64,000 nucleotides of DNA from an uncultured Alphaproteobacteria bacterium (GTDB lineage Bacteria > Pseudomonadota > Alphaproteobacteria > CAAHEQ01 > UBA3637), in NCBI GenBank assembly GCA_934203105.1, contig CAKPYQ010000001.1, positions 37,270 through 101,269 on the forward strand, written 5' to 3'. Positions 7,291 to 34,756 of the stretch are shown here, piece by piece; within the stretch, counting starts at the first letter, position 1, and each line of letters begins with the position of its first letter. The notes beneath the pieces are model-generated. The model made no database searches. It saw only the letters and a program-made list of their open reading frames with translations, and was not told the DNA's origin. A program made the position numbers and the translations under genes.

Positions 7291-7295
7291 CAGCC

Positions 7296-7964
7296 CTACA
7301 TTTCAGCCAATCTTAAACGACATTGCTCGGCTGTCAAACCTTCCATAGAGCACGTTGTAACATTAAACTTTGCCCCCTTTGTCACGCGGTTGCATACATC
7401 GCCTGCCAAAGCGATGCCGACCGACGCATTGCCTCTGATGCCGACGTCGGTAAAGTCTGCAAAAGTTTTGGTGTCGCCCCAAGTATATTCAACATGTATT
7501 TGCTTTAACTGGCGCGGCGTGTAGTTAAAAACATTTAAACGCATTTGACAATATTGCATACCGGTCGATGTCGTCGTAATACGAAAATCGGTTGTCGATA
7601 AAAAGATTCTGTCCTGCATCATATAATCGGCATATTGTTGTTGTTGCTCAGGTGTCATTTTTTCCATCAAATCACCACGCAATCCGCGTCTGGTTGCTTC
7701 AATTTCTTCGTCTGATTTGGCAACCGGAACGGGCGCTTTGCTACCGTCGTCCATATCCATCATTTCCGGATTCGAGTTTTGCGGAATAACCAATTCGCCC
7801 GTTTTTTTATCAAAATAAACTGGTTCGTTTTCCTCCGACAATCCATCAGGCGCAATATCGCCCCTGCTTTTCAGCATTTCCAACTGCTGCGGGGTTTGAG
7901 CCAAAGCCGACATAGCGGTGAAAATCACTCCCAACCCAAGCGTTAAAACAAAAGAATGTTTCAT
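7296..7964 (-). CDS. hypothetical secreted protein
   Basis: The signal peptide is MKHSFVLTLGLGVIFTAMSALAQ. No recognised domain. Confidence 0.4.
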   Translation of the reverse strand: MKHSFVLTLGLGVIFTAMSALAQTPQQLEMLKSRGDIAPDGLSEENEPVYFDKKTGELVIPQNSNPEMMDMDDGSKAPVPVAKSDEEIEATRRGLRGDLMEKMTPEQQQQYADYMMQDRIFLSTTDFRITTTSTGMQYCQMRLNVFNYTPRQLKQIHVEYTWGDTKTFADFTDVGIRGNASVGIALAGDVCNRVTKGAKFNVTTCSMEGLTAEQCRLRLAEM

Positions 7965-8042
7965 TTTTATCTCCTTTATTTCTTTACATAAGCGAATTTA
8001 TTTTATAGTATACAGTAATAAGTTCAATTCGTAAAGGAAGAA

Positions 8043-18895: not shown

Positions 18896-20899
18896 ATGAA
18901 ACCATTTTTTCAAATCGGTCGAAGTATGATCGAAATGCTGGCGGTATTGGCAATTATCGGCGTGCTGTCAATTGCGGGGATTTTGGGCTATAAATTGGCT
19001 TTAAACAGCTTCATCGCAAACGACATTCTAAACGACGTCCGTTTGGCTGCGGCGACTGTACTGCACCAAGACCAACGAAAAATTGAAAATCAAAAATTGA
19101 TTGATATATCCGAATTTCATCAAACTATTAAATTTGATATGGAAGCATTTCAAGACGATTGGGAAATATTTTCCATTCGTGTTTACGATGTGCCAAAGGG
19201 CGTTTGTCGATCCGTTTTGCGCAAAATCACCGATGAATATAAAATCCGTGTCGGAGAAGAAGGCCCGATTTACATCGATGACATTTCAATATGTGATCAA
19301 GAATTAAATGAAATGTTGTTTTATTTCGGAGATGCGGGCTATATTTGCTCGACCCCTTGCGAAGACGGTGAAATCGGTTGTTGCAACGGCTGCAAATGTG
19401 ACGACGGTGCCGATTGCGTATCCGACGAAGTTTCCGGCGAACAAATGTGTTGCCCGTCCGAACAAATGGCGTGCAACGGACGTTGTTACACCGCTTGCGG
19501 ACAAGGAATGCAGTTTGATCCGACCACTTGCACATGCGTTTGCGGCACCGACAGCAGTGGCCGCCCGCTGTTCCAAGATGCCGACGGCAAATGCACACGT
19601 TGTCCCGACATCGGTGGCGCGATGCAACTGCTTTTGAAGAACGGAACTTGTGAATGCGAAAAACCCGGTTATGTTTATATTGAATCGGCTGGTGAATGCC
19701 AAAAGATCAGCTGTGACCCGCAAGAAGGTGCCGGCGGATACAAATGTACCATTAACGGCATTTTATGTGGCGTCGGCTGTGACGAAAACGCCAAAAGTTG
19801 CAACGGCATTTGTTGGCCAAACGGTTGTCCGGACAAAACTACGTTTAACAGAATGCCCAATGCACACAGGGGTTTCGGGCAAGAATTCCATTGTCAAAAA
19901 AACAAAAATGACAGTTGCTATTACGACTATGATATAGGCGAATGGTCCGTCAACAAATATTTGGGCAAAGAAAGAACCGATTTTCGTTGTTGTCAAGCCG
20001 ACAGCAATTGCAACTGCCAAAGCGGGCTTTGCGATCAAAGCTATTGCGCTGCAAGATGGCCGGGAAAAGCAAACTATGAAGTCATTTATTATAATGAAGG
20101 TCGCGGCGGTTGCTATTTTGCCCAAGAGCACGTTTTCTGCTACCCGACCGAAAGTAATTTAAATGGAAATTGGCATTGCTTTATCACCAGCGGATTAAAA
20201 ACAGGCGAACAAAAAACATGTGATACAACTTGTTCGGCGGCCGATATGCCGTCATGCAATGCAAAATGCGATCCGGATGCGCTTTGCAATGTTTATAACA
20301 TGGGTATGCACGCAGACAGCAATGGTTATTGTTGCACCACGATCAACGGACGAAACATCTGCGCCAAAGGAACGTATTTTTACGTCAAGACATCGGATTT
20401 AAAATACAATCGTTGTGGCGTGGATTGTTCGGCCGACGGCACATGTGAATTGGGCGATTGTTCCGGACAATGCCCAAGCGGCGAATATACCGAACTGAAC
20501 AATGTTTACGGTTGTGCTCATGGCAGAATCGGTTGTTACTATAACGGCAATTATATGGCCGGCAGAGAAGGCTTTTCATATGATTGCACTGTTGATAAAA
20601 CAACGCCTTGCGGTTCCAAATGCGACATCGATGGCAATTTGTGTGAAATCGTAAAAGATTTGGCTTGCGCACCGGACTTTATCGGCGCTTGCACAGACGC
20701 AAACGGCAATACGGTCGATTGCAAAAAGTGCCAAGACACCAAGGGCAACGAAGTTGTTTGCAAACAATGTGTAGCAGATCAACCGGTTACAAAAGAATGT
20801 ATTTGTCCGGCTCATACCGAAACGGCCGAAGGACAGCTTTGCTGTTTAAAAACGCACCAATTGGTCAATGGCGGATGTAATTTGTTAAGCGGATCTTAA
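18896..20899 (+). CDS. giant cysteine-rich secreted protein with type IV prepilin-like (class III signal) N-terminus
   Basis: The N-terminus MKPFFQIG|RSMIEMLAVLAIIGVLSIAGILGY has a short basic leader, then Gly, then a hydrophobic helix with Glu at +5. These are the hallmarks of the prepilin-peptidase substrate. About 500 residues follow with more than 70 Cys in CxC/CC/CxxC arrangements. Confidence 0.6.
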   Translation: MKPFFQIGRSMIEMLAVLAIIGVLSIAGILGYKLALNSFIANDILNDVRLAAATVLHQDQRKIENQKLIDISEFHQTIKFDMEAFQDDWEIFSIRVYDVPKGVCRSVLRKITDEYKIRVGEEGPIYIDDISICDQELNEMLFYFGDAGYICSTPCEDGEIGCCNGCKCDDGADCVSDEVSGEQMCCPSEQMACNGRCYTACGQGMQFDPTTCTCVCGTDSSGRPLFQDADGKCTRCPDIGGAMQLLLKNGTCECEKPGYVYIESAGECQKISCDPQEGAGGYKCTINGILCGVGCDENAKSCNGICWPNGCPDKTTFNRMPNAHRGFGQEFHCQKNKNDSCYYDYDIGEWSVNKYLGKERTDFRCCQADSNCNCQSGLCDQSYCAARWPGKANYEVIYYNEGRGGCYFAQEHVFCYPTESNLNGNWHCFITSGLKTGEQKTCDTTCSAADMPSCNAKCDPDALCNVYNMGMHADSNGYCCTTINGRNICAKGTYFYVKTSDLKYNRCGVDCSADGTCELGDCSGQCPSGEYTELNNVYGCAHGRIGCYYNGNYMAGREGFSYDCTVDKTTPCGSKCDIDGNLCEIVKDLACAPDFIGACTDANGNTVDCKKCQDTKGNEVVCKQCVADQPVTKECICPAHTETAEGQLCCLKTHQLVNGGCNLLSGS

Positions 20900-20992: not shown

Positions 20993-22063
20993 ATGAAACG
21001 GACGCGCAATATTGCTTTTGTTTTGTCCACCGTGGCGGCAGTCAGCTTGATTGCGGCATGCCAAAGCGCAAAAGAAGAACAACCGCTGCAAAATGCGGCT
21101 TGTCCGGAAGGCTTTGTTGAAACGACTAATATCGGCATGGGTGATGAAATTATTTGCTGTCCGTACGGAACAACCGGCCAAGACGGTTATTGCGTTGATA
21201 CACCGATGGATTATCAACCTGCCCCGTCCGAATATCCGCAAACAGATACGATCGTTGATACGGGCTTTGCCCCGCAACCCGATCAATCCGAAACGCAAGC
21301 TCCATCAGAAGAACAAACAAAACCAACTGAACCGGCTGAATTTGATGCTCGAACAACGCCTGCAGAGCCGGCCGAATCAGCTTCTGCACCGGCACAAGTT
21401 ACGCAAGTTGCCGGCGAATTCGTTTATTTAACCGCCCCGAACGGCAAAGGAAGCGCTTATTGCCAAAAAAGAGCCAATTCTTTGGCGTGGAACGGCATTC
21501 AATACAAATGTTGCGGATACGGATTAACGTCAACCGTCGTTCCGTCTCGTGATGATTCGATTTGCTGTCCGGTCGGTTCTACTTCGGCACGTTGGGTTGG
21601 AACAGCCGGCTTTGATTATCAATGTTGTCCGGTCGGAACGGTTGAAACCCAAAATGAAGGTTCGGGCGATAAATACATTTGTTGCCAAAAAGGTATGGTC
21701 GGCAAAGACGGCGTATGTCGCACCAAAACCGAATTGCAAAAAGAAGGCAAAGTTTTAATGACCGCAATCGGCAATAAAGGCCAAGCCTATTGTCCGCAAA
21801 ACGCAAACTCTTTAGCGTGGAATGCGGTTGAATTTCAATGTTGCGGCAAAGGAATGAAAGCGGCGTTGATTCCATCACGCGGCGATTCGATTTGCTGTCC
21901 GGAAAGCTCCGACGAAGCACGTTGGGTCGGACAAAAGTGGAATGATTTCGAATGCTGTCCGGCCGGTACAGTCGAAACAAAGAATGAAGGCGAAGGCGGC
22001 AAATATATTTGCTGTCCAAAGGCAAGCAGAGCTTTGAACGGGGAATGTTTAAGCGTTCAATAA
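20993..22063 (+). CDS. cysteine-rich lipoprotein with internal about 107-aa duplication (CC-P-x-G / CCG motifs)
   Basis: Lipobox L-I-A-A-C. Two repeats contain YCQKRANSLAWN..CCGYG...SR.DSICCP..S..ARWVG....CCP.GTVET.NEG.G.KYICC. A Pro/Glu-rich linker is present. Confidence 0.55.
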   Translation: MKRTRNIAFVLSTVAAVSLIAACQSAKEEQPLQNAACPEGFVETTNIGMGDEIICCPYGTTGQDGYCVDTPMDYQPAPSEYPQTDTIVDTGFAPQPDQSETQAPSEEQTKPTEPAEFDARTTPAEPAESASAPAQVTQVAGEFVYLTAPNGKGSAYCQKRANSLAWNGIQYKCCGYGLTSTVVPSRDDSICCPVGSTSARWVGTAGFDYQCCPVGTVETQNEGSGDKYICCQKGMVGKDGVCRTKTELQKEGKVLMTAIGNKGQAYCPQNANSLAWNAVEFQCCGKGMKAALIPSRGDSICCPESSDEARWVGQKWNDFECCPAGTVETKNEGEGGKYICCPKASRALNGECLSVQ

Positions 22064-22396: not shown

Positions 22397-22405
22397 ATAA
22401 AGATA

Positions 22406-22432
22406 AGAGGAAGTTTTGCTTCCTCTTTTTTT
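22406..22432 (+). terminator. rho-independent terminator after the tRNA
   Basis: aagaggaag tttg cttcctctt is a perfect 9-bp stem followed by a T-run. Confidence 0.65.
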
Positions 22433-22644: not shown

Positions 22645-25600
22645 TTACACGTCCATCACGTTGTCTGTCCAAAGTTCGCATTGTGTCATAACTGTTTGAA
22701 CGGCATCATCAACACCTTCTGGGGGATATTTATGCTTTTTTAACAATTTTTTTATCATCATACGCATTTTGGCGCGCGCTGTTTCTTTTTTCTGCCAATC
22801 TATTGTTTTATTTTTGCGCAAAGTTTCGGTGAGTTCTTTTGTAATAGCAATTAATTCATCATTTTCATAAAAATCTTTAACTGCTTGTGGACGAGCCAAT
22901 GCATCATAAAAAGCTGCTTCTTCAGCATTAAGCCCTAAATCATCACCTTCCTTTTGTGCTGTGGCAATTTGTTTTGCCAAATTAAGCAGCTCCTCAATAA
23001 CTTGTTCATTAGTCAACATACCGTTCAAATAGCGGTTCATAGATTCTTGTATCATTTCACTGAACTTTTCCGAACGCACAACATTGGTATGGCGATAAAT
23101 AGAAATCTGCTCAGCTATTAATTTTTTCAACAATTCGACCGCCAAATTTTTTTCTTTCATCTTGGACACTTCATCCAAAAATTTCGGGTCAAACAGCGAA
23201 AATTCTTCTTTTATATCTGAAAACAGATTAATTACACCATCGCTTTTTATACTCTGCCCCAACAGCTCGTTGATACGCTTATTCATTTCCGGCAAAGATA
23301 TTTTCTTTTGCCCACCGCCTTCGGTAAAACGCAAAATCATAATACGAACAGCTTCCATAAATGCTGCCTCAATACGCAATATTTCTTCAACAATAGATGC
23401 GCAAAGAGACAAAGCCTGATGTAACATAAGGGCTTGCTTAATAAATGCGTCTTTTTCTTTATTTTTCTCTCTGGCAATAATAAAGTTTGCGGCACCGCTT
23501 ATCAATCTTGCTCGGACTAAATTTGAACCGGTAGCAAATTCGCTATAATCAAAACCGTGCAATAAATCGCGACAAACCTGCAATTTTTCTTTGAATTTAT
23601 TATATGCTGTGGTAGCAATATCCATATTACCATAGTTCTTTCTGTCGCGGAGAGTATAATCATTCATCGCCTTTTTCAAAGCACTGGCAATACCGATATA
23701 ATCAACCACCAAACCGCCTTCTTTATCTTCAAATACGCGATTAACACGAGCAATCGCCTGCATCAGGTTATAACCTTCCATCGGTTTATAAATATACATT
23801 GTCGCAAGCGATGGTACATCAAAACCGGTTAGCCACATATCAACAACAATCGCAATCTTCAAAGGATCATTATTATCTTTAAATTTACGTGCTAAATCTT
23901 CCTTATGAGATTTATTACCAATAATAGCTCGCCAATCTTCTGGATCATCATTACCGGATGTCATAACCACAGCAACTTTATCTTTCCACGCGGGGCGTAA
24001 CTCCAAAATTCGATGATAAATTTTCAATGCAATCGGACGAGAATAAGCTACAATCATAGCCTTACCGGTTAATAAATTTTCGCGGTAATTTTCGTAGTGA
24101 TCCAAAATATCGCAGACAAGCGAATTGATAGTATCATCGTCGCTTAATATTGTTTCCATTTGCCCGAGTTGTTTTTTACTTTTTTCAATGACCTCTGGAT
24201 CGGCATTTTGTGCCATTAAATCATATTCAGCATCAATCAGTTGTAAAATTTCCGGTTTTAAATGAAGTTTTATCACGCGGCTTTCATAATAAACCGGACG
24301 CGTTGCACCATCTTCTACTGCTTGTGTCATATCGTAAACATCGATATAATCGCCAAATACCTCTCGCGTGTTGCGGTCATCAAGAGAAAGCGGTGTCCCC
24401 GTAAAGCCAATATATGTCGCATTTGGCAGAGAATTACGAATAATTCGTGCCGTTCCGACTTTGATATTTCCTTTTTTATCTATCTTTTCAGACAAGCCAT
24501 ATTGACCGCGGTGCGCCTCATCAGCCATAACGATAATATTCCGTCGCTCTGACAGTGGCTCAACTGCTTCCTCAAACTTTTGCATCGTGGTAAAGAAAAT
24601 ACCATTGGCTTTGATACCATTCAAAAGCTGTTTCAAATGTTCTCGGCTTGTTGCTTGCACCGGTTCTTGGCGCAAAAAATCTTTGCATTTAGCAAATTGC
24701 GTATAAAGTTGGTCATCTAAATCGTTACGATCTGTAATAACTACTATTGTCGGGCTGTTTAATGCGCTTTGCAGTAAATGAGCATAAAATACCATAGAAA
24801 GAGATTTGCCACTACCTTGCGTGTGCCAAAAGACACCGCCTTTACCATCAGTTTGCGTGGCGCGTTTGGTCGATTCGATCGCTTTTTTTACCGCAAAGTA
24901 TTGATGATAACCAGCCAAAATTTTTGACCTCCCCTTATTTTCGGCAGAAAAGCAAATAAAATTTTTCAAAATATCCAGCAGGCGCGATTTTTCAAAAATC
25001 CCATTAAAAAATGTATCAAATTGCGCATATTTGGTGTTTTCGTAGGAACCATCAACCGTTTTCCATTCCATAAAACGAGTCTCATCAGAAGTAATCGTTC
25101 CGGCTTTAGATACCGCCAAATCACTCATGACACAGATTGCATTATATATAAACATAGACGGGATTTCGTGCTTATAGTTTTGAATTTGCCGATATGCTTC
25201 CGAAGCATCTGTTTCTTCTCGCGACGGAGATTTCAATTCCATCAGCACAAGTGGCAACCCGTTGATAAACAGCAACACATCCGGACGTTTTTCGCTGTTT
25301 TCAATGAAGGTCCATTGGTTGGCAACAATGAAGGAGTTATTATCCGGATTTTCATAATCAATCAGATAAACAATCGTATCGCGTGGCTCGCCTTTTTCAG
25401 TATAGCGGACGGTAATGCCATTTTGCAAATAATCCATAAAAATGGCATTTTTTTGCGTCAATTCGGCATTTTCAAAATTTTTGAGCTTAAAAAGAGCCTC
25501 GTTTATTGCCTCATCCGGCAAATCTGGATTGATTTGATGTAGAGAATTTGTCAGTATCGGTTCATACAATGGCGAAGTAAAATCCCGCGTTTCCACATCC

Positions 25601-25698
25601 GGCCCATAAACATGTGTATAGCCAATTTCTTCAAACAACTCAATAATCGACTTTTCATACGCTTCTTCATTTACTGGATTGATGAAAGTATTTGTCAT
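22645..25698 (-). CDS. hsdR: type I restriction enzyme R subunit (HsdR)
   Basis: 1017 aa. The SF2 helicase motif I is HTQGSGKSLSM and the DEAH motif II is VMADEAHRGQ. The N-terminal nuclease region and the size are typical of HsdR. The start overlaps the upstream gene by 4 bp. Confidence 0.88.
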   Translation of the reverse strand: MTNTFINPVNEEAYEKSIIELFEEIGYTHVYGPDVETRDFTSPLYEPILTNSLHQINPDLPDEAINEALFKLKNFENAELTQKNAIFMDYLQNGITVRYTEKGEPRDTIVYLIDYENPDNNSFIVANQWTFIENSEKRPDVLLFINGLPLVLMELKSPSREETDASEAYRQIQNYKHEIPSMFIYNAICVMSDLAVSKAGTITSDETRFMEWKTVDGSYENTKYAQFDTFFNGIFEKSRLLDILKNFICFSAENKGRSKILAGYHQYFAVKKAIESTKRATQTDGKGGVFWHTQGSGKSLSMVFYAHLLQSALNSPTIVVITDRNDLDDQLYTQFAKCKDFLRQEPVQATSREHLKQLLNGIKANGIFFTTMQKFEEAVEPLSERRNIIVMADEAHRGQYGLSEKIDKKGNIKVGTARIIRNSLPNATYIGFTGTPLSLDDRNTREVFGDYIDVYDMTQAVEDGATRPVYYESRVIKLHLKPEILQLIDAEYDLMAQNADPEVIEKSKKQLGQMETILSDDDTINSLVCDILDHYENYRENLLTGKAMIVAYSRPIALKIYHRILELRPAWKDKVAVVMTSGNDDPEDWRAIIGNKSHKEDLARKFKDNNDPLKIAIVVDMWLTGFDVPSLATMYIYKPMEGYNLMQAIARVNRVFEDKEGGLVVDYIGIASALKKAMNDYTLRDRKNYGNMDIATTAYNKFKEKLQVCRDLLHGFDYSEFATGSNLVRARLISGAANFIIAREKNKEKDAFIKQALMLHQALSLCASIVEEILRIEAAFMEAVRIMILRFTEGGGQKKISLPEMNKRINELLGQSIKSDGVINLFSDIKEEFSLFDPKFLDEVSKMKEKNLAVELLKKLIAEQISIYRHTNVVRSEKFSEMIQESMNRYLNGMLTNEQVIEELLNLAKQIATAQKEGDDLGLNAEEAAFYDALARPQAVKDFYENDELIAITKELTETLRKNKTIDWQKKETARAKMRMMIKKLLKKHKYPPEGVDDAVQTVMTQCELWTDNVMDV

Positions 25699-26546
25699 TT
25701 TTTCTCCTTTAATCCTTTAAGAAATTCAGCCATTTTGTTTTTCCGTTCTTTATTATCTTTAGCTAAAACACAGAATAAAAGTAATTGATAAATTTCGTCA
25801 TATAGGTTTTCCAATTCGTTATCACTCATCTTAGCAATAATTTCTTTTTTATCTGCACCCTCTTTGTTATTATGACGTATATGAGCATTGTTAATCATTC
25901 CGCGAACGGTGGTAAAATAGGAATTGAAATCTGGTATACCGTCATCCAGCAATGGTTCATATTCTGTCGCAATGGTTAGTAATAATTTTCTTTTTTCCTC
26001 TAATTGTCCTTTTAACGATGCATGATGATATTTCAAAATAGCCATTGCTGTATCTTTTGATGAAATCTCTGCCACTGCAAACGCGGCAGGATCTTTAGGA
26101 ATAAGTAAAATTTTCTCTTCATCTTCAATACAATATTCTTTGTAATTCAAACGCTCTAAAATTAGATTCAAATTTTGCAATAGCATAATATATTCTTTGG
26201 AGCTTTGAAAATTCATATTTTGTCCCAGTCCAACTTTATTTTGAGCAAGTCGTATTAGATTAATAAAATATTCCAAAGTTAAAATTAAATCATCTTGTTC
26301 GTTCGGAAGTTTACCAATTTTCAGTTTTTTCCGAATTTCTGCACAATTTAAACATCCATTTCTTTGTTTCCATCCATGCAGTAAAAATGTATCAACAATC
26401 CCCTCAATATTTAATTGTCCTTGATGAAAATTCATTGGGTTTACATATGTGAACATAGGCAATGCAAAAAGTTTGATAATCTTTTTCATTTCTGCATTTA
26501 TATCATATTCACTGGCTAAAATTTCAAAGATATTTTTACGAGTCAT
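25695..26546 (-). CDS. hypothetical protein embedded between hsdS and hsdR (possible HEPN-like R-x6-H motif; function unknown)
   Basis: 283 aa, AT-rich, no P-loop, so it is not a PrrC-type ATPase. Its only motif-like feature is RGMINNAH near the C-terminus. The gene overlaps both neighbours by 4 bp. Confidence 0.3.
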   Translation of the reverse strand: MTRKNIFEILASEYDINAEMKKIIKLFALPMFTYVNPMNFHQGQLNIEGIVDTFLLHGWKQRNGCLNCAEIRKKLKIGKLPNEQDDLILTLEYFINLIRLAQNKVGLGQNMNFQSSKEYIMLLQNLNLILERLNYKEYCIEDEEKILLIPKDPAAFAVAEISSKDTAMAILKYHHASLKGQLEEKRKLLLTIATEYEPLLDDGIPDFNSYFTTVRGMINNAHIRHNNKEGADKKEIIAKMSDNELENLYDEIYQLLLFCVLAKDNKERKNKMAEFLKGLKEKK

Positions 26547-27754
26547 GGAGTATCCTTTTGTTCTGAAATATCCACATTATCGACATTGATTTCACCAGAC
26601 ATGAGTTTGGGTAATAATGTGTCACGAATAGAGGCTAATTTAATATTTTCTAAGGCATTAGCTGCTATTTTATGCATTAGAGGAGATACAATATTTGTAA
26701 ACTTTTTAACTGTATCTGGCAATGGAATAAATATTGGTAATCCTAGTAATTCACTTTGATTTAGACCTGGTTGAGCAGCTTTACTACACGCTAGCGTGTG
26801 CAGATAATTTTTATTTGTTTCATAACTTAAACAAAAGTAAATAAAAAATTGTGATGATATGTTTGATTTTCCACGTATAATAAACACATGCTCATTAACC
26901 GCACAAACTTTATGAGGAAATCCATCTAATGCAAGAGATACTTTTCCTGTGTATGCACCATCTTTATATAATAAAACATCCTCCGATAAGACCTTTCCTC
27001 GTTTCATTTGCTTGTAAAATTCTTCACTAATAAATTTTTCTTTACTGTAATCATATACACCAAATTTTTCAATATTTTCAGCTCCGATACTAGGTATTCC
27101 TTGACTTAGAGCTCCTCCTTTTGGTCGGCTACCACTTTCTGCAATATTAACAATATCTGCTAAAATGCCATTATTTTCAGAGCCATAAATAGATTTAAAC
27201 AGAGCCTGAGCCTGTTGTTCTAAATTATTATTTATCCTATTATTCAGCTCGATTTTATCATCCAGCACCCCCAACACCCTTGCAATCTTCTTCTGAATAT
27301 CAAGCGGAGGAACTGTGAATTCTAAATTTTTAACTTGTGTACCAGATATTTCTGCAAAAGTTGATCCTGATCCCATTCCTACAATATATTCAATGTTATT
27401 TTTTAGTAAATAATAGAAAAATTCAGAACAATATCCTTTTTTTAACACAAGACTTTTAAATCCTTGATTAGTACAAACATCATTTTTTGCAATCGCTACA
27501 TATCCAATAGGAGCTCGACTTGTTAATAAAACACTACCTTTAGGTAACATATGAGCACTACTATTTTGAAGGCCTTCTTGAGCTATATTTCGTTCACCTT
27601 TAGAAATGTATCGACTATTATAACCTGATAAATCTTTAGGAGTTAGCCATGGGATATCTCCATTCCAAAAATCATAATTTTTAGTACTAGGAGTGCCTCC
27701 ACCTATGACTTCACAAACATCACTTAATTTAATCTTCTGCCAATTACTATTCAT
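26543..27754 (-). CDS. hsdS: type I restriction-modification specificity subunit (HsdS), two target-recognition domains
   Basis: 403 aa with a duplicated TRD architecture and conserved central and C-terminal coiled regions. It is very AT-rich, as is typical of hsdS. Confidence 0.7.
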   Translation of the reverse strand: MNSNWQKIKLSDVCEVIGGGTPSTKNYDFWNGDIPWLTPKDLSGYNSRYISKGERNIAQEGLQNSSAHMLPKGSVLLTSRAPIGYVAIAKNDVCTNQGFKSLVLKKGYCSEFFYYLLKNNIEYIVGMGSGSTFAEISGTQVKNLEFTVPPLDIQKKIARVLGVLDDKIELNNRINNNLEQQAQALFKSIYGSENNGILADIVNIAESGSRPKGGALSQGIPSIGAENIEKFGVYDYSKEKFISEEFYKQMKRGKVLSEDVLLYKDGAYTGKVSLALDGFPHKVCAVNEHVFIIRGKSNISSQFFIYFCLSYETNKNYLHTLACSKAAQPGLNQSELLGLPIFIPLPDTVKKFTNIVSPLMHKIAANALENIKLASIRDTLLPKLMSGEINVDNVDISEQKDTP

Positions 27755-28784
27755 CGGCTACCTCCAAATTTTCATCATCTATGCGAATTTCTTCTATTGA
27801 AAAAGAATAATCATCACAACTATTAATCCATAGTGTCATATCAAGTTCATCTGTAAAGGATAAAGCAGAATTCGTATCAACGGTTATTTCTGCTCGTATC
27901 ATAACCTCATATTCTAAAAATATTTCATCTTCATGGTGTTGTTCTATATTGTATATATTTTTTACAATAAATTTGCTTAAAGACAAATATTTTGTATCTC
28001 CGATAATTTCATTAGAAAATGATCTTAAATCATTAAGAATATTATCTGAATTTAGATATTCTTTTATCTCGGAGTATTCTTCAGGATATTGAGGTGGAAT
28101 AGGATATGTGTCATCTTTATCTTTTGCTATTTGATCTAATTTTGAGTTTAAAATGTCTTCATTTTTTGAATTAATAAAAATAATTTCTTGATTTGGAAAT
28201 AACTTTTTATACTCTTCTTTTAACTCTTCATTGAACATTTTATCATTTGTATATAGGATGATATTTGTATCCGGATGTTCTTTTTTGTATTCTAAAATTG
28301 TTTCCCAAAGTAATGCATCTTTAAAACCCTTATCTGAGTTATTTTCTTTTCCCTCAAAAGGTGGTCTTTTATCAAATGCTCTATTTATAAGATTAAAATA
28401 ACATTTATCAGATGGAAAATTTAATTCTACAATGTTAATAGGCTTATTTTTTAATGCATTTTTATAGGCATTAATGTTTTCATCAAGATAAGTATCATAA
28501 TTTTTTGTTGTATCAACTTTATACGAATGGAAAGGAAATTTATGTTTTTTAAGCATATCTTCAAATTCTTTAACTTTTTTATGGTATGCTATAATATTTT
28601 GTTTTTTAGTTTCAGACCATACAATTTGAGGAATAGCAATTGATACAATATCATAAATATCTAACTCTTCAATGCGTGTCATGAAATTGTCAAGAGTACC
28701 ATTAAAAGAAAAATCTGTAAAATCACAGCATCGAGTATAGTCCTTATATAAAGCATTTGTATCAAAAATAAGTAGATAGTCCAT
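27747..28784 (-). CDS. hypothetical protein embedded in the R-M operon; N-terminal region with PIN-like acidic-residue pattern (tentative)
   Basis: 345 aa. The N-terminus LLIFDTNAL resembles the first PIN strand with its conserved Asp. Later acidic or threonine positions (VWSETKK, ILYTNDKMF with T-x-D) are compatible with a PIN-like fold carrying insertions. There is no database support. Confidence 0.3.
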   Translation of the reverse strand: MDYLLIFDTNALYKDYTRCCDFTDFSFNGTLDNFMTRIEELDIYDIVSIAIPQIVWSETKKQNIIAYHKKVKEFEDMLKKHKFPFHSYKVDTTKNYDTYLDENINAYKNALKNKPINIVELNFPSDKCYFNLINRAFDKRPPFEGKENNSDKGFKDALLWETILEYKKEHPDTNIILYTNDKMFNEELKEEYKKLFPNQEIIFINSKNEDILNSKLDQIAKDKDDTYPIPPQYPEEYSEIKEYLNSDNILNDLRSFSNEIIGDTKYLSLSKFIVKNIYNIEQHHEDEIFLEYEVMIRAEITVDTNSALSFTDELDMTLWINSCDDYSFSIEEIRIDDENLEVADE

Positions 28785-28792
28785 TTTAACCT

Positions 28793-29203
28793 CTATTCAT
28801 AAATTACTCTTTTTGCAATCGATATAAGTTTCTGTAATAAATGCTTTAATTTTTCTCTATATTCATTATGTTCTCTACCAGTATAATACCCGCTTATTGC
28901 AGAATGAGGCAGTGGAATATAGTTTTGATTAAATGGACTTATATAATTCTTTGTCGGATTAAAATAATCACTTATCCAATTATTACGTGGCATACAATAT
29001 CCAAAATTTTCAGATAAATATGAAGTATAATTTTGTAAATACGCTTCATCCATAAGTTTAATTGTTGATGAGGCATATTTTTCAAATGCTTCATATAAAT
29101 CTTTATCTAAATGTTCATTGGCTAATAAATCTATTCCTTTACCTAGGGCTTCAAGCAATTCATTTAGAGCCTTTTGTTTATTAGGATCCAACATAATCAT
29201 CAC
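28793..29203 (-). CDS. hypothetical protein embedded in the R-M operon
   Basis: 136 aa with no recognised motif. It is translationally coupled (ATGA overlap) to the upstream small membrane protein gene. Confidence 0.3.
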   Translation of the reverse strand: MMIMLDPNKQKALNELLEALGKGIDLLANEHLDKDLYEAFEKYASSTIKLMDEAYLQNYTSYLSENFGYCMPRNNWISDYFNPTKNYISPFNQNYIPLPHSAISGYYTGREHNEYREKLKHLLQKLISIAKRVIYE

Positions 29204-29469
29204 TTTCCCTCCGTTGATTTCATTATAATTTCTTCTTCCTTATTATTTTTTTCTTCAGCTTTTTTTATAAGTAATTCATCAAATGTTGTTTTATTTTCCT
29301 TTTGTTCTTCTACAGTTTCAGGATTAAGCTCAGCCCCACCAGGGAGTTTAGTTAAACGAGAAAGAATTTTGCGAATATCATTTTTAAAAATAAAAATACA
29401 TCCACCAACTAAAATAGGCCACGCTAGATGTTCACATAATCCTAATATGAAAGTTTGCCAAGGATACAT
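29200..29469 (-). CDS. small single-TM membrane protein embedded in the R-M operon
   Basis: 89 aa. The hydrophobic helix WPILVGGCIFIF is followed by a charged KE-rich tail. The start is 2 bp after the hsdM stop. Confidence 0.35.
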   Translation of the reverse strand: MYPWQTFILGLCEHLAWPILVGGCIFIFKNDIRKILSRLTKLPGGAELNPETVEEQKENKTTFDELLIKKAEEKNNKEEEIIMKSTEGK

Positions 29470-29471
29470 TT

Positions 29472-30980
29472 TTACATCTCCCAGCCGATGGCTTTCAGTT
29501 TGTTTTTAATCTCTTCTTGCAAAGCATCAGACTGCCTAAACATCTCTGCAAGCTCTCCGGTCAGGCGTTTCATTTTATCTTCAAAAGGTTCACCGTCATC
29601 TTTCTGTTCCTCAATGCCAACATAGCGTCCAGGCGTCAAAATGTAATCCTGTGTCGCAATTTCTGCCGTTGTTGCTACCGCACAAAACCCTTTAACATTT
29701 TCCAACTTTCCTTTTTGAAATGCAGTAAATGTGTCTGCAATCTTTTTAATATCTGCATCCGTAAAATCGCGGTGTTTGCGGTCAACCATGTAGCCCATTT
29801 TCCGCGCATCAATAAAGACTGTTTTACCTTTTTGAGCTTTGTTTTTACTGATAAACCATAACGTTACCGGAATTGTTACACTATAAAACAGTTGTGGTGG
29901 TAGAGCGATAATACCCTCTATCAAATCGGCCTCAATAATATTTTTGCGAATTTCACCTTCACCGCTTGTTTGGGTAGAAAGCGCACCATTTGCAAGGACT
30001 AAACCGATTTTCCCATTAGGTGCTAAGTGATGTATCATATGTTGAATCCACGCATAGTTTGCGTTTCCTGCCGGTGGAATTCCATATTTCCAACGCACAT
30101 CATCTTGTAACTTATCCTGTCCCCAATTAGAAAGGTTAAACGGAGGATTAGCCATAATAAAATCAAACTTTTCATGCGGGTGCAGGTCATTAAAAAATGT
30201 ATCTGCCTGATATGGCCCGAAATCAGCATCAATGCCGCGAATAGCCATATTCATCTTGGCCATTTTCCATGTATCAGCATTGGATTCTTGTCCATAAACC
30301 GATATGTGGTCGCGGTTTCCGCCATGTGCTTGTAAAAATTTAACCGACTGAACAAACATACCACCGGAACCACAACAAGGATCATAAACGCGGCAATTAT
30401 CAAATGGTTTCAAAACCTCGACAATGGTTTTAACAATGCTTTGTGGCGTATAAAACTCACCGCCTTTGGTGCCTTCATATGCCGCAAATTGTGCAATACA
30501 GTATTCATAAGTTCTACCGAGTAAATCTCTATCTCCGTTGGTATCAGACATATCAATATTGTTTGTAAAAAGGTCAACAACATTGCCTAAAACACGTTTA
30601 TCAAGATCTTGATTGGCATAATTTTTAGGTAATACATTTTTAAGCGATTTATTTTCTGCTTCAATCGCTCGCATAGCATCATCAATAATAATGCCGATTT
30701 CCGGAGTGTGTGCCGCTTCAGCAATTTTACTCCAACGTGCGGCCTCAGGAACATAGAAAATACCTTCTTCAATATATGCATCTTTGTCGTTTTCAAAACC
30801 ATCACCTTCGGCGACAAGCTGATTATAGCGCTTTTCAAAGGCCGCAGAAATATAACGCAAAAAGATAAGTCCAATAATTACTTTTCGGTAATCTGCCGCA
30901 GGAATATGTCCCCAAAGTTCACAAGCTGCACCCCAGATTTGCTTTTCAAAACCTAAATTTGCATTATTTTTACCAGCCAT
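29472..30980 (-). CDS. hsdM: type I restriction-modification methyltransferase subunit (HsdM), N6-adenine
   Basis: The N-terminal HsdM domain (WGAACELWGHIPAADY) is present. The SAM motif is DPCCGSGGMF. The catalytic NPPF lies in IMANPPFNLSNW. Confidence 0.88.
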   Translation of the reverse strand: MAGKNNANLGFEKQIWGAACELWGHIPAADYRKVIIGLIFLRYISAAFEKRYNQLVAEGDGFENDKDAYIEEGIFYVPEAARWSKIAEAAHTPEIGIIIDDAMRAIEAENKSLKNVLPKNYANQDLDKRVLGNVVDLFTNNIDMSDTNGDRDLLGRTYEYCIAQFAAYEGTKGGEFYTPQSIVKTIVEVLKPFDNCRVYDPCCGSGGMFVQSVKFLQAHGGNRDHISVYGQESNADTWKMAKMNMAIRGIDADFGPYQADTFFNDLHPHEKFDFIMANPPFNLSNWGQDKLQDDVRWKYGIPPAGNANYAWIQHMIHHLAPNGKIGLVLANGALSTQTSGEGEIRKNIIEADLIEGIIALPPQLFYSVTIPVTLWFISKNKAQKGKTVFIDARKMGYMVDRKHRDFTDADIKKIADTFTAFQKGKLENVKGFCAVATTAEIATQDYILTPGRYVGIEEQKDDGEPFEDKMKRLTGELAEMFRQSDALQEEIKNKLKAIGWEM

Positions 30981-31233
30981 TTTATCTCTCTTCGCATTGA
31001 AACTATTAATAGATTGATATTCAAAAGTACTTTTTGTAGTATATTAATTTTCAATAAAAAAGTCAAAGAAAATGTAAAGACTTACGCTAAAATCTTTATA
31101 CTTTTGAGATAAATATCGTTAAACCACTGAGAGTCGACAAAATAAAAAATACAATTATTAATGAAGTTATGTTTAAAATGCAAATTTAGGATGCCTTTAA
31201 AATCAAAACTCATCCAATTTAACGTCTTGCCTT

Positions 31234-31701
31234 TTAGTCATTGTAACAATCCGTATTTTTCAGCACTTCTTTGGAATAAGAATTCTTATAAAGATTCATA
31301 TACATATCTGCAAAATCAAGGGTATAGTTTAATTGAAAAATTATAATAAATAATGCAACATGCAACGATGATATATATAGGAAATTATTATAGCTATAAT
31401 TAAAAGACAACACATTTAAAAAGAATAAAATAAGTAAAGAAAATAGAGACATCTTTAAGAATTTTTTATTATCACTAATAAAAATCTTAAACATATTACG
31501 CTTTTTCATATAGAGATTAATGTTTTGATTAGCATAGGCAGCCAAAAGAAATGACAGTGAAAAGGCAAAAATAATAGAAACACATGTAATTGCATCAGAA
31601 AGCAGGTTATCTTTTAAAGGAAATCCCAAACTTATTATTAACAAGAATAGCAATATCCATGTTCTTATTCTACATTTTAGCAAAAATTTCTTCGATTTCA
31701 T
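31234..31701 (-). CDS. small polytopic membrane protein (about 4 TM), unknown function, overlapping the upstream gene
   Basis: The start is placed at MKSKKF, preceded by the strong RBS aaaaggaagaaggatatt. There are four hydrophobic helices. The gene is very AT-rich and overlaps the upstream 251-aa gene by 32 bp in a different frame. Confidence 0.4.
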   Translation of the reverse strand: MKSKKFLLKCRIRTWILLFLLIISLGFPLKDNLLSDAITCVSIIFAFSLSFLLAAYANQNINLYMKKRNMFKIFISDNKKFLKMSLFSLLILFFLNVLSFNYSYNNFLYISSLHVALFIIIFQLNYTLDFADMYMNLYKNSYSKEVLKNTDCYND

Positions 31702-32425
31702 AATATCCTTCTTCCTTTTCAAATTCAAAAATTTCCTTTGCCACAACGCTTTGTTCATTAATAGAAATAAAACCATCAGAGCTTTCCCCTTTTATATTGA
31801 AACTTTTTATGTATGAAGGAGACATTAATTTCTCGTATAATTTTTTTATATACTTAACATTAAGCGCTCTTTTAAAATCCATTTTTACAACGGTTGTCTC
31901 GGGTTTTTCTTTTTCTTCTAAATCATCACCCCAATGAGGATTCAAAAATTCATTTATAAATAAGTTGTTTGTTGCGGTAATAGAAATTGTTTCTATTGAT
32001 TTCACCTGTTTGATAAAATCATCAATAGAAGTAGAAACGGCCAACAAATCACAAGAAAAATTCTTGTCCGTTTCATGCAATAAATTCAAAATTATATTTC
32101 TTTTATTATGATCTGAACTCAATACCTTATTTTGATAAATCACAAATATAAACTGATGCGTCATATGAACAATTTCATCTGACAAGACGCTGTCGTCATA
32201 AATCCTTTGATTCCTATTATAGCATCTATTGGGTTTTGATTTTCCATATGACACTAAAAAAACGATTTTATCTTGATCCATCATATGACGTATCGTATAT
32301 GTGGTTTCACGCAATGGGTAATCTATGATTTCTTTGTTTTGCAGTTTTTCTTTTAAAATTCGTGTTCCTGCTCCTAAAAGGTCAACACATTCCGGAATAT
32401 AACTAAACATACGCACAGAGCTCAT
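31670..32425 (-). CDS. hypothetical cytosolic protein (251 aa), AT-rich, unknown function
   Basis: No recognisable catalytic motif by eye. A glutamate-rich C-terminus (EFEFEKEEGYYEIEEIF) overlaps the downstream membrane-protein gene. Confidence 0.4.
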   Translation of the reverse strand: MSSVRMFSYIPECVDLLGAGTRILKEKLQNKEIIDYPLRETTYTIRHMMDQDKIVFLVSYGKSKPNRCYNRNQRIYDDSVLSDEIVHMTHQFIFVIYQNKVLSSDHNKRNIILNLLHETDKNFSCDLLAVSTSIDDFIKQVKSIETISITATNNLFINEFLNPHWGDDLEEKEKPETTVVKMDFKRALNVKYIKKLYEKLMSPSYIKSFNIKGESSDGFISINEQSVVAKEIFEFEKEEGYYEIEEIFAKM

Positions 32426-32587
32426 CGTTCTAATCCTTTCAATATTTTTGGTTTCTTATCTATCTCCACTAATGTTTGATATTTTAACAATTTATTCTAT
32501 CGTATCAACATTTGATAAAAAGGTCAAGTAAATATCGAAATTTGATAAAATTTTTATGTTTTTTTGAAAACACATCAATATCAATTG

Positions 32588-33487
32588 TTACAAACAAATA
32601 TTGATTAAAAGATTTTTCTTTTCCTGATAACTTTTTACTAAACTCAAAACAAAATCGTTAATGACTTCCGCCAAGGGTAATTTCCCTTTGTCAGTATAAA
32701 TAACCTGCGCAGTAAGACCGGCAAGCACTCTTTTTATTTCTGGTGTTAATTGCCCCATAAATGACCCCATTTTTAAAATATCCAAAACAGCCTGATCTGC
32801 AAAGGGGCGAAATGGTTCAATCAAATCATCAACAAGTGGCATTGTATTTGCCGATTGGCAATGCTTTAATCCCAAATAAGGTAATAACCCGTTAGCACAG
32901 ACGCTGCGCGCAACCATTGCCCGTAAAATTGTATAAGCATAATTTAAAAGCATATTTATATCTGCCGCATTGCGATTGCGAATAAAATCAGAACCAAATA
33001 ATTCATTAAAATAAAGATGCGCCGCCTGCCCTTCATTATTTTGCAGGTCATCGTTTTTAACCGTTTTTGACAACATTTGTAAACGCACTTTTATCGTCGA
33101 GTTCGGATGAACAAAAGCTAATAACTTAGCTTGATTGCTGATCTTCATTTGCACAATTTTCTTCCACAAATTTTTACGCAAGGACTCCGGCAAGGCCGTT
33201 TGCGCTTTAATTCTGGCCGACGTTAACCAATGCCCGACAATCGGTAAAGTTATTGCGGCAGGCATATATTTATCATTGCAAAAAATAAGGCATGCTTGAT
33301 TTTCACATAAAGCATTAACGATATTTTTTGAAATCAAAACATTATGTGCGGAAATAATTAAACATAAAATGCTATCCAACGGGATCTGATTAACTTGATT
33401 GGTCCGTACATCTGTAACAATTAAAAAACCTTTCGATAAAGAAAGTTTGAAATGATCAGACGATATTTCTATTACCCGTTTTAACAT
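32588..33487 (-). CDS. cas1: CRISPR-associated endonuclease Cas1, type II-family-like, apparently solo (no cas9/cas2/array in the window)
   Basis: 299 aa. Long collinear similarity to type II Cas1 as I recall it from Neisseria: NEGQAAHLYFNELFG..F.RNRN...INMLLNYAYTILRAMVAR......LLPYLGLKH......PLVDDLIEPFRPFADQ. The putative metal-binding E, H and D positions are present. GC content is lower than in the adjacent core genes. Confidence 0.8.
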   Translation of the reverse strand: MLKRVIEISSDHFKLSLSKGFLIVTDVRTNQVNQIPLDSILCLIISAHNVLISKNIVNALCENQACLIFCNDKYMPAAITLPIVGHWLTSARIKAQTALPESLRKNLWKKIVQMKISNQAKLLAFVHPNSTIKVRLQMLSKTVKNDDLQNNEGQAAHLYFNELFGSDFIRNRNAADINMLLNYAYTILRAMVARSVCANGLLPYLGLKHCQSANTMPLVDDLIEPFRPFADQAVLDILKMGSFMGQLTPEIKRVLAGLTAQVIYTDKGKLPLAEVINDFVLSLVKSYQEKKNLLINICL

Positions 33488-33490
33488 TAA

Positions 33491-34756
33491 CTACTTTAAT
33501 CCTAAATTGTCGGCGGTCAGCAAACCGGCGCCGGATAAAACCGAAAAATAAGCCGATATTTGCGCATGCTTTGCCCGCGTCAACGATACCTTCGAATCTA
33601 ATAATTCCTGCTCGGCATTCAATACATCTAATACCGTACGACGCCCGCGTTCCTGAGCGTCTCTGACGCCTTCCAACGCTAAACGATTTGCATTGATGCG
33701 CATTTGCGCTGTTTCTATCGCTGCACCTTGCGCTTGGTAAATATTCCACGCTTGACGCAACTTTTCTAAAACAATCCGCTGGGTGTGAGTGATATTTTCT
33801 TTTAAAGCAGATGCTTCATACTCGGCCTTATCCGTCCGTGCAAAAGCCGTTCCTTTATCATACAACGGCACCGTCAAATAAATGCCGATCCGGCCGTCGG
33901 AAACTTCGTCAATCACAGGAACATCTTTTAATTTCACGGCAGACGCTTTGATATCAATCGACGGCATATAGCTTTCACGCGACACCGTAACGTTGGATTT
34001 TGCCGCTTCGTATCCCGCGGCGGCAGCCAAAATAGCCGGATGCGATTTTAGAGCTGTCTTTTCGGCGTCATTAATTGACTTTGGGAAAAATTGCCGTGTA
34101 CCGTTTAATTCAATATCTGTATAATTTTCTTGCAACGATCCGTAAATTCGGCGGAACGTTTCCAAAGCATTTTCATATCCGGCATTGGCATCAATAACCG
34201 CATACTTTGCCAATTCTAAACGCGCTTTTGCTTGGGCTAAATCTGTTTTAGTCAGCACGCCGACTTTTTCTTTTTGCTCACACAAACTGAAATACTCTTC
34301 CAATACCTTTTGGTTATTTTTATCCAAATTCAATACTTCGCGTGCATTCAAAACATTGATGTAAGCATTAACGGCTTGCAAAAACACATCTTGTTCGGTC
34401 GCATATAAATTCGCCTTTTCCAAAACCGCCATACTTTTGGCTGCGTCAATTTGCGCCGTTGTTGAAAAGCCGTGAAAAATATTTTCCGATAACGTTATGC
34501 CAACCTGTTTTTGCGTATAGTCAAAATCCGTGTTATTCAATTTTGTTTTTGCACGTGCTATGCCGGCCGTTGCCCCGACGGACGGTTGCCAACCTGTACG
34601 CGCTAAATCAACTCCGGCCGATGCGCTTTTGACTTTCTGCCGCGCGGATAAAATCTGCGGGTTGGTTTGATAAACTTGCTGCAAAGCCGAATACATATCC
34701 GCATTTGCCGGCACACAAAATAAAAAGCAAATTAAAAACAGTAAATACTTTTTCAT
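33491..34756 (-). CDS. TolC-family outer-membrane efflux protein
   Basis: A signal peptide is followed by the two-repeat alpha-helical and beta-barrel OEP architecture (YQTNPQILSARQKVKSA...; repeated coiled segments). It is the last gene of the ABC-2 efflux operon. Confidence 0.8.
   Translation of the reverse strand: MKKYLLFLICFLFCVPANADMYSALQQVYQTNPQILSARQKVKSASAGVDLARTGWQPSVGATAGIARAKTKLNNTDFDYTQKQVGITLSENIFHGFSTTAQIDAAKSMAVLEKANLYATEQDVFLQAVNAYINVLNAREVLNLDKNNQKVLEEYFSLCEQKEKVGVLTKTDLAQAKARLELAKYAVIDANAGYENALETFRRIYGSLQENYTDIELNGTRQFFPKSINDAEKTALKSHPAILAAAAGYEAAKSNVTVSRESYMPSIDIKASAVKLKDVPVIDEVSDGRIGIYLTVPLYDKGTAFARTDKAEYEASALKENITHTQRIVLEKLRQAWNIYQAQGAAIETAQMRINANRLALEGVRDAQERGRRTVLDVLNAEQELLDSKVSLTRAKHAQISAYFSVLSGAGLLTADNLGLK

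Follow-up and report, generated by a model that had tools for sequence, protein, structure and literature searches.

Three separable gene modules, including a predicted PIN_12 nuclease, embedded in a type I restriction-modification operon of an uncultured alphaproteobacterium

We analysed a 64,000-nt stretch of DNA from an uncultured Alphaproteobacteria bacterium (GenBank assembly GCA_934203105.1, contig CAKPYQ010000001.1, forward-strand positions 37,270 to 101,269), hereafter the window, in which a type I restriction-modification (R-M) operon on the minus strand (22645-30980) carries four additional genes among hsdM, hsdS and hsdR. These four genes, which we refer to as the cargo, are three separable modules and not one: a pair of small genes (A-B), a gene for a predicted nuclease of the PIN_12 family, and a gene for a protein of 283 amino acids (aa). 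The interpretation that we favour, with a probability of roughly 0.5, is that the cargo provides immunity of a back-up or abortive-infection kind that is coupled to the R-M complex, by analogy with PrrC or Ronin. The cargo would then be a second line of immunity, co-expressed with the restriction complex and probably physically guarded by it. The PIN nuclease, and perhaps also the small hydrophobic protein of the A-B pair, would be held silent through the Hsd complex or the A-B pair itself; a phage that blocks or evades restriction would set the PIN nuclease free, RNA would be cut and growth of the cell would be arrested. Our data establish how the genes are ordered and coupled, their families, conserved catalytic residues and fold, how often relatives are embedded, the modularity of the cargo and its gain or loss among strains; defence, RNA cleavage and guarding by the R-M complex are inferred.

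That cargo is embedded in type I operons is already known. To our knowledge, few restriction systems that guard a latent suicide or back-up effector are mechanistically understood, namely PrrC/RloC, Ronin and EcoR22I. The locus described here offers three concrete, widespread and uncharacterised candidates for layered immunity, including a PIN_12 subfamily found in several bacterial phyla and at least one archaeon, and a two-protein unit with swappable third genes. If the cargo works as proposed, the anti-anti-restriction repertoire would grow, and the use of hsd junctions as cargo hot spots would be explained. Because strains with the 283-aa gene and strains that lack it both exist in nature, the question can be tested directly. 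We found no paper on the near-exclusive embedding of this PIN_12 subfamily in type I operons, and none on the A-B pair with its third gene or on the 283-aa family.

The operon and its embedded PIN_12 gene

The listing of open reading frames (ORFs) contains seven intact ORFs, all on the minus strand, in the order hsdM, 89 aa, 135/136 aa, 345 aa, hsdS, 283 aa and hsdR. The hsdM gene (29472-30980) encodes a type I methyltransferase subunit of 502 aa that matches the entire Pfam N6_Mtase profile (PF02384, E 3.3e-110), as well as HsdM_N (PF12161, E 2.5e-24) and the PADLOC model MTase_I (E 4.4e-194). The specificity subunit encoded by hsdS (26543-27754, 403 aa) has two target-recognition domains; it is matched by Pfam Methylase_S (PF01420) in two stretches (E 1.7e-44), and by PADLOC Specificity_I models. 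The restriction and translocase subunit encoded by hsdR (22645-25698, 1017 aa) matches Pfam HSDR_N, SWI2_SNF2, ResIII, T1R_D3-like and T1RH-like_C, and TIGR00348 (E 1e-181); its nearest solved structure is EcoR124I HsdR (E 4.7e-31), aligned over residues 107-465 only. Since models from Pfam, NCBIfam and PADLOC cover all three Hsd proteins from end to end, the R-M system looks intact and is probably functional, by prediction.

The cargo genes are tightly coupled to their neighbours. Gene A (29200-29469), which encodes a small hydrophobic protein of 89 aa with no family match, lies 2 nt from hsdM. Gene B encodes 136 aa from a GTG codon (28793-29203) or 135 aa from an ATG at 29200 (28793-29200), the latter being the start called for this gene in metagenome assemblies; it overlaps gene A by 1 nt, or by 4 nt with the GTG start. 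After a gap of 8 nt comes the 345-aa PIN_12 (DUF4935) gene (27747-28784), which overlaps hsdS by 8 nt. The 283-aa gene (25695-26546) overlaps hsdS and hsdR by 4 nt each.

The 345-aa protein matches PIN_12 (PF16289) with an E value of 3.9e-20 and 73.4 bits (cut-off 32), over profile positions 1-172 of 172. A word-index search returned 349 homologs, nearly all of them 340-360 aa long. In an alignment of 42 homologs, residues D8, E58, D151, D156 and D181 are invariant, as is the motif DKGFKDxLLWE. Because these five acidic residues are invariant, the acidic active site is intact as judged from the alignment; we infer which four of the five would be metal ligands. Structure models of the cargo proteins are confident, and the 345-aa protein is predicted to adopt a PIN fold of the RNase type, with helical inserts in its N-terminal PIN domain and, at the C-terminus, an alpha+beta domain of NTF2/cystatin-like appearance in the model. 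Most of the top structural matches are RNA-acting PIN domains (Nmd4, Dis3, VapC and EST1A), not DNA flap nucleases, and the substrate would be RNA. Searching PDB sequences with the PIN profile gave no match, nor did tblastn of the protein against a plasmid collection. DUF4935 was first recognised as PIN-like in a 2017 classification, where its function is given as unknown and where links between PIN genes and R-M systems are noted in passing and discussed in the light of toxin-antitoxin (TA) systems (PMC5499597).

Relatives of this gene within its subfamily are found almost exclusively inside type I operons. We collected 66 loci in a profile-guided scan of one genome per species, and then ran the Hsd proteins of the window by tblastn against these loci. 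In 60 of the 66, the PIN gene sits inside a type I hsd cluster and shares its strand; this fraction applies to the one PIN_12 subfamily picked by the scan pattern DKGFKD[AV]L and not to all of PF16289. The most frequent orders are hsdM-PIN-hsdS-hsdR (27 loci) and hsdM-hsdS-PIN-hsdR (16 loci); seven further loci have hsdM-PIN-hsdS on truncated contigs, and in a few the PIN gene follows hsdR. The hosts include Clostridia, Bacilli, Negativicutes, Bacteroidota, Alpha- and Gammaproteobacteria, Desulfobacterales, a Coriobacteriia actinobacterium, Elusimicrobia and the methanogenic archaeon Methanimicrococcus. According to gene tables, the stop/start overlaps extend to three distant PIN homologs, each of which overlaps hsdS, and to hsdM as well in the two loci in which an adjoining hsdM was called. 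Among 38 complete loci, pairwise identities of the PIN protein correlate with those of HsdM (Spearman 0.61, Mantel p ~0.001), and the correlation between HsdM and HsdR is higher (0.90).

Strict embedding and translational coupling would also suit a PIN_12 protein that is a pro-restriction accessory subunit, binding the type I enzyme and enhancing or completing the destruction of DNA, or aiding assembly. There is a precedent in PcrIIC1, a PIN-like protein that complexes with Cas9 and boosts cleavage (PMC13153721). We nonetheless regard this as improbable: the preponderance of RNA-acting proteins over DNA flap nucleases among the top structural matches speaks against it, most type I systems operate without such a subunit, and PIN alleles diverge far faster than HsdM and HsdR, which is unusual for a core subunit.

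The base composition of the cargo raises a different question. GC content is 0.257 for the PIN gene, 0.275 for the 135-aa gene, 0.299 for the 283-aa gene, 0.307 for the 89-aa gene and 0.322 for hsdS, compared with 0.383 for hsdR, 0.400 for hsdM and 0.415 for the window. AT-richness of this kind, and the fact that three of the four proteins have no firm match in family libraries, might be expected of insertion debris or mis-called ORFs. However, identical proteins in an identical seven-gene order are present in independent human-gut metagenome assemblies, Hadza samples among them, which excludes an assembly artefact or pseudogene debris. All four cargo ORFs are intact, each protein is represented by full-length homologs, numbering from tens to hundreds, that share invariant residues, and the structure models are confident. 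We therefore give the debris explanation almost no credence; the conservation data effectively refute it. The few named relatives of the cargo proteins come from metagenome-assembled genomes (MAGs) labelled Alphaproteobacteria or Rickettsiales, and every contig with the identical proteins derives from a human gut metagenome, so that the host is probably a gut alphaproteobacterium.

A portable gene pair and a 283-residue family

The 89-aa protein A has no match in Pfam, PADLOC, NCBIfam or PHROGs. Its N-terminal segment (MYPWQxFILGLCEHLAWP) is invariant and its tail is charged, being rich in Lys and Glu; the invariant residues W4, Q5, G10, L11, E13, H14, L15, A16, W17, P18 and C24 lie within its sole hydrophobic segment. 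It is probably a membrane protein with a single predicted helix. Protein B, with 62 homologs of 118-138 aa in our search, has a conserved N-terminal part of ~55 aa, a variable linker rich in N, S, Y and P, and a conserved C-terminal segment; a reading of the sequence, as distinct from a structure prediction, suggests that its ends are helical. There is no reliable match for protein B in Pfam, NCBIfam or PHROGs, and its sole signal is a weak one to the PADLOC model PDC-M42B (E 0.0074), which 3 of 26 family members also match (best E 4.7e-4). PDC-M42B is the middle gene of a three-gene candidate system, listed as FAM_00403>>FAM_03189>>FAM_00360 in the tables of Payne et al. Models for the A and C components of PDC-M42 gave no match at the locus in PADLOC. 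The signal is thus compatible with a three-gene cassette and too weak for membership of PDC-M42.

In the loci compared, genes A and B are adjacent, A precedes B, and a variable third gene comes directly after them. Protein A is 61-74% identical in eight loci whose third genes differ, and 37% identical in a ninth. The third gene encodes PIN_12 in the window, an SLFN_AlbA_2 protein in locus L168, a DUF3644 protein in L172, a 609-aa protein in L164, a 220-aa protein in L178, membrane proteins of 287-309 aa in L088, L100 and L089, and a 278-aa zinc-ribbon-like protein in L095; in L175 the pair is followed by genes for 73 and 290 aa, and in L065 gene B is followed by genes for a 221-aa membrane protein and then a PIN protein. 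L065 and L089 keep a homolog of B, but the first protein there is a different one, a two-helix membrane protein of 110 aa. Two of the pairs are outside type I operons: that of L164 adjoins a type IIG enzyme within an element flanked by recombinases, and that of L178 in an island with GmrSD and HipA. Conversely, PIN_12 relatives stand alone, without the 89/135-aa pair, in type I operons of Firmicutes, Bacteroidota, other phyla and one archaeon.

One could imagine, from this arrangement, that the A-B pair is a portable adaptor or sensor that couples swappable effectors (PIN_12, Schlafen/AlbA_2, DUF3644 and membrane proteins) to the state of restriction, that PIN_12 and the 283-aa family are two further classes of R-M-guarded effector, and that the operon is a three-layer guarded immune unit. 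We consider this elaboration unlikely as a whole. Were it true, the A-B pair would be the hallmark of a new, modular family of defence systems.

The third module, the 283-aa protein, is mostly helical and belongs to a large unannotated family. Our search found 311 homologs, and an exhaustive profile search gave 1,127 clusters at 50% identity, nearly all of 270-300 aa. The C-terminal half is highly conserved, with the motifs PKNPAATAVAE, KYHHASLKG, NNxx[IL]RHNN and WYDELYQLLLFC; KYHHASLKG, NNxx[IL]RHNN and YQLLLFC are invariant. The protein has no match in Pfam, NCBIfam, PADLOC or PHROGs, ATPase and P-loop families included, and 39 aligned family members scanned singly gave no consistent match. 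With the family profile, PDB sequences yielded coiled-coil noise only and no relative; the structure model had no match in a viral structure library, and tblastn found none in a phage collection. The Rx4-6H motif of HEPN proteins is absent from the family, in that no conserved His occurs 4-6 residues after the Arg of NNxx[IL]RHNN. We saw no clear catalytic signature in the 283-aa protein.

Of 80 metagenome loci with homologs of the 283-aa protein, ~26 have the gene within a type I cluster or next to one, and in ~20 of those ~26 the order is hsdS-283-hsdR, or the portion of it that is present on the contig. A second setting is type III-like. In 27 loci, many of which are from closely related lineages, homologs of ~30% identity are found in the arrangement SNF2 helicase - DUF4391 - [283-like] - type III Mod - (DUF2971, RhuM) - Res. 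In these loci (L119, L125, L136, L153 and ~23 more) the homolog lies between DUF4391 and Mod, and DUF2971 and RhuM are often embedded as well. One further homolog lies beside prophage lysis genes, which are followed by an MrcB_N/NOV_C gene.

Within the species of the window, the 283-aa gene is itself variable. Aligned to the window by blastn, two other strains (L001 and L004) are 98-99% identical in the flanks and break at 27192 and 25708. The segment between these positions (25708-27192, minus strand), which comprises the second half of hsdS and the 283-aa gene, is replaced in the other strains by a different hsdS half with no 283-aa gene.

The sequence-only reading that preceded this work had described a one-strand type I operon with four tightly coupled embedded genes, cargo and hsdS that are AT-rich relative to hsdR, hsdM and the rest, a PIN-like N-terminus in the 345-aa protein, and a 283-aa protein without a P-loop in the position of PrrC. 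The ORF listing and family models, the GC values (0.257-0.322 versus 0.383-0.415), the PF16289 match and the lack of any ATPase or P-loop family match bear out these descriptions, and the 283-aa protein is indeed not PrrC-like. With no firm match of the four proteins to a characterised defence family, its context-based attribution to defence was reasonable. Its proposal of a single composite module, made of a membrane protein and a nuclease, does not survive: PIN_12 genes occur alone elsewhere, A-B pairs precede other third genes, and the 283-aa gene is present or absent within one species, moving with the second hsdS half. The 89/136/345-aa trio does travel as a unit within this species, but a survey of gene neighbourhoods shows that it does not do so across taxa. 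Neither outcome that the reading had named as fatal to it was seen, since none of the cargo proteins matches a well-characterised family unrelated to defence, and homologous R-M operons do carry these genes.

Guarded immunity weighed against other explanations

Sister loci whose HsdM and HsdR are 88-94% identical to those of the window fill the same two slots with other genes. These encode a PD-Lambda-3_A-like protein (E 2e-9) and, at the position of PrrC, ABC/SMC-like ATPases, both with matches to known defence models, as well as RhuM/Fic and a protein bearing an RNxxxH motif. We read the hsdM-hsdS and hsdS-hsdR junctions as slots that collect predicted accessory immunity genes. This variation matches the picture of embedded defence drawn by Payne et al., who describe thousands of gene families embedded in R-M, BREX and DISARM systems (bioRxiv 10.1101/2024.01.29.577857). 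Locus L100 has a gene (6996-7994) between hsdS and a 283-aa homolog that encodes a 332-aa protein with a HEPN-like RNCIEH motif and no match in Pfam or PADLOC.

Such turnover is also what would be expected if the cargo genes were independent hitch-hikers, that is, autonomous defence or selfish genes for which the R-M operon is a landing site that gives expression and co-transfer, with no sensing of Hsd. The slots of sister loci hold very different cargo (PD-Lambda-3_A-like, ATPase, SLFN_AlbA_2, RhuM/Fic), the base composition of the cargo is foreign, neither the A-B pair nor the 283-aa family is confined to type I operons, and PIN alleles are swapped between near-identical R-M backbones. The thousands of embedded families of Payne et al. 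point the same way, as does the PIN_12 protein Cosus, which acts as a single gene. On the other hand, the PIN_12 subfamily is within type I genes in 60 of 66 loci, in three operon positions and in distant phyla, as expected of a functional dependence like that of PrrC, and the start/stop overlaps with hsd genes are conserved. We hold hitch-hiking to be possible, though doubtful, as an account of the cargo.

Several observations weigh against guarded, R-M-coupled immunity and have to be set beside the evidence for it. Defence is a predicted role for the four cargo proteins, and PADLOC v2.0.0 has no firm model match for any of them. The hydrophobic segment of the 89-aa protein (~residues 7-27) has a Kyte-Doolittle 19-residue maximum of 1.69, which is borderline for a membrane helix. 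Since the A-B pair and the 283-aa family both occur outside type I operons as well, a strict dependence of either on Hsd proteins is unlikely. Among four clusters of fused 283-like proteins (P0403, P0418, P0448 and P0421), three combine the 283-like domain with an extended acidic linker, a membrane helix and an extracellular domain of the LytR_cpsA_psr type, which is a cell-wall glycopolymer ligase domain; in the fourth, the only addition is a C-terminal membrane anchor. The fused proteins have a degenerate RHNN motif, and this combination is not expected of a nuclease effector. Because the domain is fused to membrane anchors and its RHNN motif is degenerate there, it may serve for binding or sensing in the cytoplasm, as opposed to being an enzyme.

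The PIN_12 gene itself is subject to similar reservations. The count of 60 in 66 holds for the subfamily that the scan pattern selects, and most DUF4935 genes are monocistronic according to an earlier survey (PMC5499597). Locus L065 has the closest backbone, with an HsdM that is 89% identical, and yet its PIN protein is just 20% identical. A near-identical backbone with a divergent PIN fits cassette swapping, and could also reflect hitch-hiking. Because PIN and HsdM identities correlate, though less strongly than those of HsdM and HsdR, and because the L065 PIN is so divergent, we conclude from these comparisons that the association of PIN_12 with type I systems is old and general, with exchange of alleles.

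The operon as a whole also moves. HsdM and HsdR are 76-83% identical to copies in MAGs of Ruminococcus, Clostridium and Acutalibacter (L020, L022, L024, L027 and L033), which indicates that the R-M backbone has crossed phyla, with recent transfer in the gut. An operon that moves between phyla might have cargo that serves the R-M element itself, either through TA-like addiction or by regulating restriction so that it is delayed or alleviated in a new host. The PIN domain is a classic one among TA toxins, the links of PIN genes to R-M systems have been considered from that angle (PMC5499597), and the 283-aa protein has no clear catalytic signature. Nevertheless, family libraries reveal no antitoxin-like protein of the helix-turn-helix (HTH), ribbon-helix-helix (RHH) or AbrB type beside the PIN gene, which in most loci comes straight after hsdM or hsdS without a small gene as partner; a member of the 283-aa family is, moreover, found close to prophage lysis genes, adjoining other defence-type genes. 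We judge this explanation very improbable.

Flanking genes and comparison with known systems

Upstream of hsdM, a consensus scan found a candidate promoter-like -35/-10 pair (TTGACT-17-TATACT; 31038-31066, minus strand), 58 nt from the hsdM start, in a region where the number of promoter-like sites is not above shuffled expectation. A terminator scan found an inverted repeat (22405-22427), ~220 nt downstream of hsdR, that is a candidate terminator by consensus match only. Just downstream of hsdR lie genes on the plus strand for two large cysteine-rich proteins of 667 aa (18896-20899) and 356 aa (20993-22063), the larger of which has a type IV pilin-like N-terminal segment (GRSMIEMLAVLAIIGVLS).

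On the other side of the operon, a solo type II-like Cas1 (PADLOC Cas1_II, E 1e-90; 32588-33487, minus strand) is encoded at the end of an ABC exporter operon, its start lying 3 nt after a gene for a TolC-like outer-membrane factor (33491-34756). We found no cas9-sized ORF and no CRISPR array near it in the window; cas2 was not searched for. Between cas1 and hsdM are genes for a 251-aa protein (31670-32425, minus strand) and a 180-aa multi-helix membrane protein (31234-31776, minus strand), with GC contents of 0.25-0.30 and no matches in Pfam, PADLOC, NCBIfam or PHROGs. In other strains of the species, a NUDIX gene takes the place of cas1 and the gene after it (31774-33472); the 180-aa gene is kept in all strain variants, and the 251-aa gene moves with cas1. 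Further away, ~30 copies of a 15-nt tandem unit (61568-62017) lie inside an ORF of 763 aa (61308-63599), which implies a protein with a 5-residue repeat.

Among known systems, the closest in proposed logic is PrrC/RloC (EcoprrI-PrrC), in which a latent RNase is guarded by a restriction enzyme, as we propose here. In both cases a nuclease gene lies amid hsd genes, is co-transcribed with them, and its relatives are found almost only in type I operons; PrrC is reported to be almost exclusively embedded in type I R-M systems (bioRxiv 10.1101/2024.01.29.577857). The differences are clear, however. The cargo has no ABC-ATPase or P-loop match in Pfam, NCBIfam or PADLOC, the predicted fold is a PIN domain with an NTF2/cystatin-like domain and not the PrrC nuclease domain, and the position of PIN_12 varies, after hsdM, hsdS or hsdR.

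Ronin, from E. coli ECOR55, provides a parallel for the 89-aa protein. RonA, a membrane toxin of 61 aa whose gene is linked to hsdS and hsdM, is kept neutral by HsdMS until the anti-restriction proteins Ocr or ArdA trigger it (bioRxiv 10.1101/2023.04.06.535777). The 89-aa gene, 2 nt after hsdM, recalls this in encoding a tiny protein with a predicted hydrophobic helix that is borderline as a membrane helix, and the likeness is one of size, hydrophobicity and placement. Unlike in Ronin, where hsdR is usually absent, a full-length hsdR is present here, and the 89-aa protein is paired with a partner of 118-138 aa and a variable third gene, in a pair that also occurs away from hsd genes.

At the level of the domain, the 345-aa protein resembles Cosus (Brc24), which likewise contains a PIN_12-type domain of Pfam. 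In E. coli, Cosus confers protection from T7 that is strongly weakened, but not abolished, when predicted PIN residues are mutated (bioRxiv 10.1101/2024.07.02.601719). In contrast to the gene described here, Cosus is a stand-alone integron cassette in Gammaproteobacteria and is not embedded in an R-M system. VapBC shares the PIN fold of the VapC group and the conserved acidic residues. It differs in that no DNA-binding antitoxin match is adjacent here, the 89- and 135-aa proteins being without HTH, RHH or AbrB domains, in that the 345-aa protein is extended by long helical inserts and an extra C-terminal domain, and in that the genomic partner is an R-M system.

Lastly, the PIN, 283-aa and 89-aa proteins match no PADLOC v2.0.0 model, which sets them apart from the PDC systems of Payne et al. 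In its architecture, however, the locus is of the same kind as those systems: uncharacterised genes nested in type I operons, and predicted to act in defence through 'guilt by embedding'.

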